A program made the translations under genes and the position numbers. Positions 63,355-63,479 of a DNA stretch of 64,000 nt are shown here, in pieces (position 1 is the first letter of the stretch; every line of letters begins with the position of its first letter). Source of the DNA: a virus; UHGV virus genome UHGV-0179803; one strand, written 5' to 3'. The notes beneath the pieces are model-generated. The model worked only from the letters and a program-made list of their open reading frames with translations, made no database searches and was not told the origin of the DNA.

Positions 63355-63479
63355 AATTATTCTCCTTTCGATTGTTTTCGTTTCCTTTCGTTTCTTATCG
63401 TTTGAGCTGTGTTTTATTCCGCGTAGCGTCATGCTGAGCTGTGGATAAGTCTGTGGATAACCCTGCCTCCTGTGGATAA
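63355..63479. promoter_or_regulatory. DnaA-box cluster with adjacent T-rich tract (origin-like or DnaA-titrating element)
   Basis: Three perfect TGTGGATAA 9-mers (reverse complement TTATCCACA) at 63440, 63452, 63471 in the same orientation; upstream TTTCG-rich pyrimidine tract 63361..63410. Confidence 0.6.

Follow-up and report, generated by a model that had tools for sequence, protein, structure and literature searches.

Among DnaA-binding loci, datA has an IHF site between its essential boxes and DARS has oppositely oriented boxes in its core. Accessory DnaA boxes are known in the iteron replicons P1 oriR, F (oriS) and pSC101.

In phages, the left terminal repeat of T5 was described as having pairs of DnaA boxes in its iss region (Heusterspreute 1987, as cited by Davison, bioRxiv 10.1101/866236). 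Davison hypothesized that membrane-bound DnaA arrests the entry of T5 DNA at these boxes (bioRxiv 10.1101/866236). For phages of the rV5 type, the rV5 genome was described as having a ‘non-coding’ box between convergent transcription units; no origin of replication could be defined in that study (PMC3606486). Klebsiella phage KPP-1 has a 514-bp direct terminal repeat, determined from coverage and PhageTerm (PMC9862379). In ICP1, a distant relative, a 1.3-kb ORF-less space contains the pac site; a putative rolling-circle origin was placed close by and theta replication begins elsewhere than in this space (PMC7145576). We found nothing relevant in the prior literature linking rV5 or Vequintavirinae to DnaA boxes, or phage DnaA boxes to titration.

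Here, we analysed a window of 64,000 nt, the last part of a 139,523-nt metagenomic contig (ENA ERZ1034815 NODE_8); the window end is the contig end. A second assembly of the same phage (1 mismatch over 12.7 kb) extends beyond it. A sequence-only reading had pointed to three perfect DnaA boxes near the distal end of the window and had proposed three functions for them: a DnaA-dependent origin, a DnaA-titrating site or a DNA-injection pause signal. We favour, with a probability of roughly 0.42, a reading in which the three boxes would be a lineage-specific accessory DnaA landing site of a terminal hub, similar to the T5 iss, and no self-contained DnaA-dependent origin.

The phage and its non-coding hub

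We consider the phage to be an uncultured relative of rV5-type myoviruses, because its rIIA-helicase-rIIB block is ∼67% identical at the DNA level to that of Vequintavirus phages, its PIF1-type helicase has the FV3 protein as the best match (64.8% identity) and it carries replication genes of its own (a DnaB/Toprim helicase-primase and a family-A polymerase, Pol A). Searches with megablast and blastn of the segment 62400-64000 against 50,697 phage records gave no match to a close cultured relative. Eight related sequences were collected by pattern searches (three from IMG/VR and five from metagenomes), which with the window makes an alignment of nine. One related sequence carries a human gut metagenome label.

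There is no credible ORF from 61,800 to ∼64,340 (∼2.5 kb). To the left of this hub lies a + strand early block of small genes with good sigma-70 promoters, closed by a terminator; to the right there is a single small + strand gene followed by − strand genes. The hub is thus situated between convergent blocks. It is colinear with the hub of FV3 (Vequintavirus), and the backbone is common to both. Its likeness to the rV5 ‘non-coding’ box and to the ORF-less pac region of ICP1 is one of genomic position, as the largest ORF-free gap. The main elements of the hub, apart from the boxes and their immediate left neighbours, are as follows.

61800..64000, running ∼340 bp beyond the window: ORF-free hub (ORF scan)
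61812..61837: bidirectional intrinsic terminator at the left hub edge, kept in relatives
62340..62480: A+T-rich stretch with the two least stable 40-mers of the 64-kb window (−34.0 and −38.3 kcal/mol versus a mean of −52.3, sd 3.5)
62502..62926: iteron-like field, six AATAACGCTGAG in both orientations, framed by a 24-nt direct repeat TATGCAACGATAACATGGCGC; largely conserved in relatives
63089..63131, + strand: 11-bp tandem repeat GGGGAAGTATA, ∼4 copies, varying among relatives
63480..63870: best-conserved ORF-free module of the hub, directly right of the boxes
63519-63546: weak sigma-70-like site TGTACA-16-TATAAT, within that module
63691..63729, + strand: 20-bp tandem repeat TAATCACTGTGnGnAACTAT, two copies; a similar motif occurs at 50,342 and in Spc35
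63795..63811: near-palindrome TTGAGAATCATTCGCAT; the surrounding block (∼63759-63840) is conserved as far as FV3

Far from the hub, the 527-aa ORF at 12,490-14,073 (− strand) has a YadA-like membrane anchor domain at its end (Pfam E=4.7e-18), which is unusual for a phage protein; it is probably a tail-fibre or adhesin module.

Sequence and conservation of the DnaA boxes

The segment around the boxes reads ...TTGAGCTGTGTTTTATTCCGCGTAGCGTCATGCTGAGCTGTGGATAAGTCTGTGGATAACCCTGCCTCCTGTGGATAACTGG... and contains four sites in one orientation.

63440..63448, + strand: DnaA box 1, TGTGGATAA with flanks CTGTGGATAAG; exact match, perfect in six of nine sequences
63452..63460, + strand: DnaA box 2, CTGTGGATAAC with TGTGGATAA core, 3 bp past box 1; invariant in all nine sequences
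63471..63479, + strand: DnaA box 3, CTGTGGATAAC with TGTGGATAA core, 10 bp past box 2; invariant in all nine sequences
63624..63632, + strand: fourth box of the relaxed consensus TTWTNCACA, TGTGGAAAA = TTTTCCACA, oriented as boxes 1-3

The three perfect copies of TGTGGATAA were thus found at 63440, 63452 and 63471 in a single orientation, as the sequence-only reading had it. Its statement that they match the strongest E. coli DnaA box also holds: the 11-mer CTGTGGATAAC of boxes 2 and 3 is exactly the sequence of R1 and R4 in oriC of E. coli K-12. The start-to-start distances are 12 bp (boxes 1-2), 19 bp (boxes 2-3) and 31 bp (boxes 1-3, ∼three helical turns).

The window contains seven copies of TGTGGATAA against 0.72 expected, and none of 100 shuffles gave seven; the remaining four copies are solitary, each within an ORF. 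With ∼4.5e-4 copies expected per 40 bp, three copies in 40 bp have, by our own arithmetic, a chance of ∼1e-8 over the whole window, in agreement with the earlier claim that the cluster is beyond chance.

Both spacings (12 and 19 nt) are constant in all nine aligned sequences. Variable columns number 2 of 27 in the boxes versus 10 of 13 in the spacers (Fisher p=1.8e-5; nine sequences), the spacer ahead of box 3 being variable at most positions. In three relatives (L128, L132 and L134) box 1 is replaced by TGTTAATAA (= TTATTAACA), a common T5 variant box. The invariance includes positions outside the generic CTGTG...AAC pattern. As for the fourth box, CTGTGGAAAA is invariant in an eight-sequence alignment and kept in all relatives. 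The boxes always adjoin the conserved right-hand module, and their left neighbour is replaceable among the relatives. Since box columns hardly vary and the spacing is constant while the spacers diverge, the boxes are under purifying selection. Host DnaA very likely binds to them, because they are non-random, match the strongest E. coli boxes and are selected.

The motif CTGTG occurs in the hub (61,800-64,000) 11 times on the + strand and 0 times on the − strand, with ∼2.7 per strand expected from the rest of the window. The hub has six relaxed DnaA boxes, all on the + strand; only four are kept in relatives.

The enrichment and strand bias of CTGTG would fit a broader set of sites recognized by another factor, such that a phage protein reads the boxes instead of DnaA. 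The many small insertions throughout the hub could in turn suggest that the boxes are a neutral leftover of a segment gained by horizontal transfer. We regard either explanation as highly improbable. The exact DnaA consensus is present over 9-11 nt three times, with positions beyond CTGTG...AAC invariant as well, and a neutral remnant would not remain perfect while the spacers diverge. Moreover, a search of the window (∼46% of the genome) revealed no DNA-binding protein similar to DnaA, the lone weak match being a MoxR-type AAA+ ATPase.

That match (LPEIGD.F.G), in the ORF at 23535-24728, had been considered as a candidate phage-encoded DnaA-like protein and was rejected: BLASTP, PDB and Pfam comparisons place it among the MoxR/Clp-type AAA+ ATPases, and the FV3 homologue bears a MoxR annotation. 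Together with a DUF2201 metallopeptidase/VWA-like gene at 18,513-19,964 (− strand), this gene (+ strand) makes up a MoxR-VWA pair conserved among phages of the rV5 type.

Neighbouring elements and the question of an origin

Two elements separate the boxes from the remainder of the hub on the left side.

63363..63403, + strand: T-rich 10-bp tandem repeat TCCTTTCGTT, 4.1 copies (57% T, 5% A)
63404..63435, + strand: 32-nt insertion containing the 18-mer ATTCCGCGTAGCGTCATG, flanked by a duplication of TGAGCTGTG; present in 0/8 relatives

The sequence-only reading had noted a T-rich tract beside the boxes and an 18-bp direct repeat abutting it. The location of the tract was right, but a role as unwinding partner of the boxes is not borne out. 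Its duplex stability is ordinary (40-mer at −50.3 kcal/mol versus the window mean of −52.3, sd 3.5), and this thermodynamic profile rules the tract out as a DUE. The tract is present in most relatives; in L124 unrelated sequence stands in its place, and in this genome alone it is parted from the boxes by the 32-nt insertion. Similarly, the 18-mer does occur at 62830 and 63416, with a degenerate copy at 62148, yet it is no conserved component, as the copy by the boxes is inside the insertion that all eight relatives lack. The copy at 62830 is also within an insertion. Because both copies sit in insertions, the repeat is best seen as a part of a small dispersed insertion element, outside the DnaA module.

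Insertions of this family are ∼30 nt long, are built around ATTCCGCGTAGCGTCATG or TAATCGGCGTAGCCTCATG and are flanked by GAGCTGTG(TG) direct repeats. They were observed in the window at 62,827-62,858, 63,404-63,435 and, degenerate, at 62,148, as well as in L123 at 10,536-10,563 and in L128 at the equivalent of ∼63,222. Their presence or absence differs by hub position among relatives, and elements with CCACCTGGCGTAGCCAG and GGGCTTCATGGCTTCGC act likewise; the hub appears to be colonized by miniature insertion elements.

We then have to consider whether DnaA on the three boxes would help to open DNA or load the helicase, i.e. whether the hub is a DnaA-assisted replication origin. The hub is a composite of the least stable DNA of the window (62340-62480), iteron-like repeats, tandem arrays and boxes; the T-rich strand is located 5′ of the boxes, with the polarity of the DUE and R1 in oriC; in some unrelated viral contigs the same box pair has a Toprim/AAA_25 primase-helicase gene as its neighbour or is within an HTH_36 gene; and late replication of ICP1 appears to begin near the ORF-less region (PMC7145576). 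Nevertheless, we judge an origin of this kind to be unlikely. The two least stable 40-mers (within 62355-62466) are ∼1 kb to the left of the boxes, the adjacent tract is of ordinary stability, and tract and boxes do not stay together, the former being replaced in L124 and set apart by the insertion in the present genome. The hub backbone is common to FV3, yet the four perfect boxes of FV3 are all solitary, with no cluster in the whole 136,947 bp. In addition, FV3 has iterons and an AT-rich run by an annotated initiator gene at 63.9-64.55 kb, at a divergent gene junction; genes converge at the hub, where KPP-1 has its termini in the equivalent place; and the phage has a DnaB/Toprim helicase-primase and a Pol A of its own.

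With E. coli oriC the locus shares a cluster of high-affinity boxes (three perfect, two with the R1/R4 11-mer CTGTGGATAAC) and a T-rich strand 5′ of the boxes, with the polarity of the 13-mers and R1. It differs from oriC in that no easily melted A+T-rich element adjoins the boxes, the spacing between a putative unwinding element and the boxes is not conserved (L124, the 32-nt insertion), the IHF consensus WATCARNNNNTTR has no match in the hub and no regular array of weaker sites was seen beside the boxes. To P1 oriR, F oriS and pSC101 the likeness is in tandem consensus boxes of one orientation bordering iteron-like repeats and an A+T-rich stretch. The hub has iteron-like AATAACGCTGAG repeats and no ORF. 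It differs from these replicons in that no initiator gene is located in or beside it, the boxes are 0.5-1 kb away from the iteron-like and A+T-rich parts, and the sister genus has a better origin candidate elsewhere.

The latter candidate was observed in FV3 at 63,893-64,554 (L143 13,893-14,554), where four GTGTCCGTAT(T/C)RCGGACAG iterons and an AT-rich run are located beside FV3_00072, annotated as a replication initiation protein; this region is a plausible theta origin of rV5-type phages. Of the three functions proposed in the sequence-only reading, a DnaA-dependent origin is therefore the least favoured, given that FV3 has no cluster, that the iteron/initiator region lies elsewhere and that KPP-1 has its termini in the hub. 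FV3 is close to rV5 and, unlike the window, lacks a cluster of DnaA boxes both in the hub and outside it; the boxes are accordingly best described as an addition of the uncultured clade, a lineage-specific accessory.

The conserved module to the right of the boxes brings up another explanation, control of transcription. DnaA might activate, repress or roadblock a promoter at 63519-63546, or it might insulate the hub from read-through. The sigma-70-like site (score 10/12) is 40 bp downstream of box 3, and the region downstream is highly conserved and ORF-free. Still, promoter-like matches in the hub are not in excess (12 versus 9.7 in shuffles), the −10 element is TATAAC in several relatives, the site is much weaker than the early promoters of the phage itself, no ORF follows for ∼800 bp, RNA covariation is absent and a strong terminator already closes the upstream block. 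Transcription control by the boxes is, in our opinion, improbable. A structured RNA in the module was rejected on the basis of RNAalifold (covariation term +1.36, compensatory pairs 1/100), and an Rfam search for known RNA families in the hub returned sub-threshold matches only.

A proposed terminal hub, the T5 iss and other possible roles of the boxes

Taken together, the comparisons with FV3, KPP-1 and ICP1 lead us to read the hub as the region of the termini and of packaging, where late replication may take place as well. KPP-1 belongs to the same subfamily as the rV5-type phages, and its 514-bp terminal repeat is inside the equivalent convergent gap. This repeat holds AAATGAGAATCATTCCGC, of the motif class of the near-palindrome at 63795-63811; motifs of the TTGAGAATCATTCGCAT class are also repeated in the T5 iss region. 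The exact 18-mer AAATGAGAATCATTCCGC is common to the KPP-1 terminal repeat and the T5 iss; matches in shuffles reached 14 at most.

When the box segment was compared with cultured phages by blastn, most of the records returned were T5-like, with the matches in the first-step-transfer terminal repeat. The iss regions of T5 and Spc35 contain box pairs of one orientation 3 bp apart, e.g. GCTGTTGATAAGTCTGTGGATAAC and CTGTGGATAAGTCTGTTAATAAC, including the TGTTAATAA variant, and AAATGAGAATCATT palindromes (GAGAATCATT-type) recur after them on the same side; the pairs lie where the terminal repeat has its inner edge, within a large untranslated stretch. The window has the same 3-bp pair in boxes 1 and 2 (GCTGTGGATAAGTCTGTGGATAAC versus GCTGTTGATAAGTCTGTGGATAAC of T5), and an exact 18-mer, GATAAGTCTGTGGATAAC, is common to the window and the T5 iss. 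Its relatives carry TGTTAATAA, the variant common in T5-like phages. There is likewise an untranslated repeat-rich stretch with GAGAATCATT-type palindromes following on the same side. A terminal repeat nearby is annotated in T5 and, for the window, only projected from KPP-1.

The differences are also clear. T5, a siphovirus with a 10-kb repeat, has seven or eight boxes, with four pairs in inverted repeats and 52-bp spacers; the window, from an rV5-like myovirus with relatives that carry a ∼0.5-kb repeat, has three direct boxes and a distal weak one. No inverted-repeat frame was found around the boxes that would correspond to the eight T5 boxes in IRC/IRD/IRD′/IRC′ with 52-bp spacers. Because this T5 frame is absent, we do not assign the element to the T5 iss module and note only that it resembles that module and probably works in a similar way. 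Beyond the DnaA boxes, motif sharing between the window and T5 is short and borderline (BLAST E 0.35-2.5). The 10-mer GGTGTTACGT shared with Spc35 was discarded as a sign of homology, several shared 10-mers being expected by chance at these lengths. Klebsiella phage KPP2018, considered as an rV5-like phage with boxes, is actually a T5-like Tequintavirus.

The landing-site reading thus draws on boxes that are non-random, R1/R4-identical, kept in nine sequences and abutting a conserved module, and, for the terminal hub, on the FV3 colinearity, the rV5 ‘non-coding’ box, the KPP-1 repeat in the equivalent gap and the ICP1 pac space. DnaA would fill the three boxes cooperatively and bend the DNA, and it may extend towards the weaker site of the same orientation at 63624. 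The nucleoprotein complex would form next to the best-conserved core of the hub (63480-63870). The predicted terminal repeat is a few hundred bp away from this core; its position is projected from KPP-1, a different genus whose hub barely aligns with the window. The complex could act on some transaction of genome-end DNA. Candidate roles are the tethering or pausing of incoming DNA, by analogy with the T5 proposal, the organization of the genome end or of a concatemer junction, and late replication starting from the hub, as has been proposed for ICP1. The idea of an injection pause, raised in the sequence-only reading, has its nearest known counterpart in the T5 iss, for which it is itself a hypothesis; we know of no two-step injection in the rV5-type phage group. 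Contigs break in the hub at several different positions, so that these breaks may reflect repeats only, which counts against the landing-site model. As a map of the termini, contig ends were set aside, given these scattered breaks and one assembly that reads through.

Box pairs of this type are not restricted to the clade. We found the exact 23-mer CTGTGGATAAGTCTGTGGATAAC in more than 120 IMG/VR contigs (at least; loci L001-L120), which fall into at least 49 unrelated flank families, with a median of three boxes of the same orientation within 150 nt. Boxes of the opposite orientation are almost never found nearby, and relaxed boxes have a background density of 0.087 per kb. Twelve family representatives were inspected, and in 10 of them the pair is outside any long ORF. 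The neighbours include Toprim/AAA_25 primase-helicases, an HTH_36 protein containing boxes, YqaJ recombinase and GP88/DUF7227 proteins. Judging by this distribution, short direct arrays of consensus DnaA boxes are a common and repeatedly evolved phage element. Their recurrence in at least 49 families points to a use of DnaA by phages that goes beyond the few textbook cases.

Recurrence of clusters of 2-3 boxes in at least 49 unrelated viral contig families is also what one could expect of a DnaA sink. According to this explanation, the boxes of the amplifying genome would titrate host DnaA and stop initiation at the host chromosome, in a manner similar to datA. Each genome brings three top-affinity boxes and four solitary ones in ORFs (seven in 64 kb versus 0.72 expected), and one to two hundred genome copies would rival the chromosomal box number of E. 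coli. However, neither the fixed spacing nor the fixed place by one conserved hub module is needed for titration; a datA-type IHF site (WATCARNNNNTTR) is absent from the hub, and all boxes are in one orientation, in contrast to DARS. Sister phages do without any cluster, and the benefit to a fast lytic phage is unclear. The titrating site of the sequence-only reading is, on balance, quite unlikely.

The finding would be an ordinary one if the boxes did no more than titrate DnaA or play a minor accessory part. If DnaA acts at a phage genome end, as the landing-site reading would have it, the unproven T5 model would be extended beyond T5-like phages. In any case, the clade gives a testable handle on the hub, in the form of a host protein very likely binding there, and sister phages with and without boxes exist, which would lend themselves to a simple genetic test.

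A broader version of the same idea would combine the DnaA boxes with the GAGAATCATT palindromes, which are Fur-box-like, into a portable host-factor landing pad beside the termini of unrelated virulent coliphages. Abundant host DNA-binding proteins would capture the incoming end, and genome entry or end processing would be paused or tethered in a controlled way. Staged DNA entry would then be no peculiarity of T5 and would span T5-like siphoviruses and rV5-like myoviruses. We see only an outside chance that this generalization is correct.

A related observation was made far from the hub, in the ORF-poor gap at ∼50,050-50,830. At 50,340-50,392 the motif AAATGATAATCATTCTCA is preceded by ATTAATCACCGTAAGTAACTATT, resembling the 20-bp repeat of the hub (63,691-63,729), and both motifs are side by side in the Spc35 iss region (L139, ∼1225-1290). 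AAATGATAATCATTCTCA agrees with the 13-nt core of the E. coli Fur-box consensus (AATGATAATCATT). Either a host-factor site (Fur?) common to both phages or the exchange of a non-coding module may explain this.

Finally, at the right end of the hub, two motifs, CTCTTCAGG and GATATTTG(T/C)G, recur in a single orientation and are conserved across genera. They extend from 63,885-64,000 of the window into L137 (12,704-13,040) and are found in FV3 (L122 9,560-10,160) and KPP-1 (L136 ∼4,700-4,910). This stretch includes a G7 run, at which the contig ends, and an A14 run. One copy of the motif forms the spacer of a good sigma-70 promoter, TTGACT-17-TATATT, before the small + strand gene right of the hub; the product of this gene is AP2-like by eye, with no Pfam hit.
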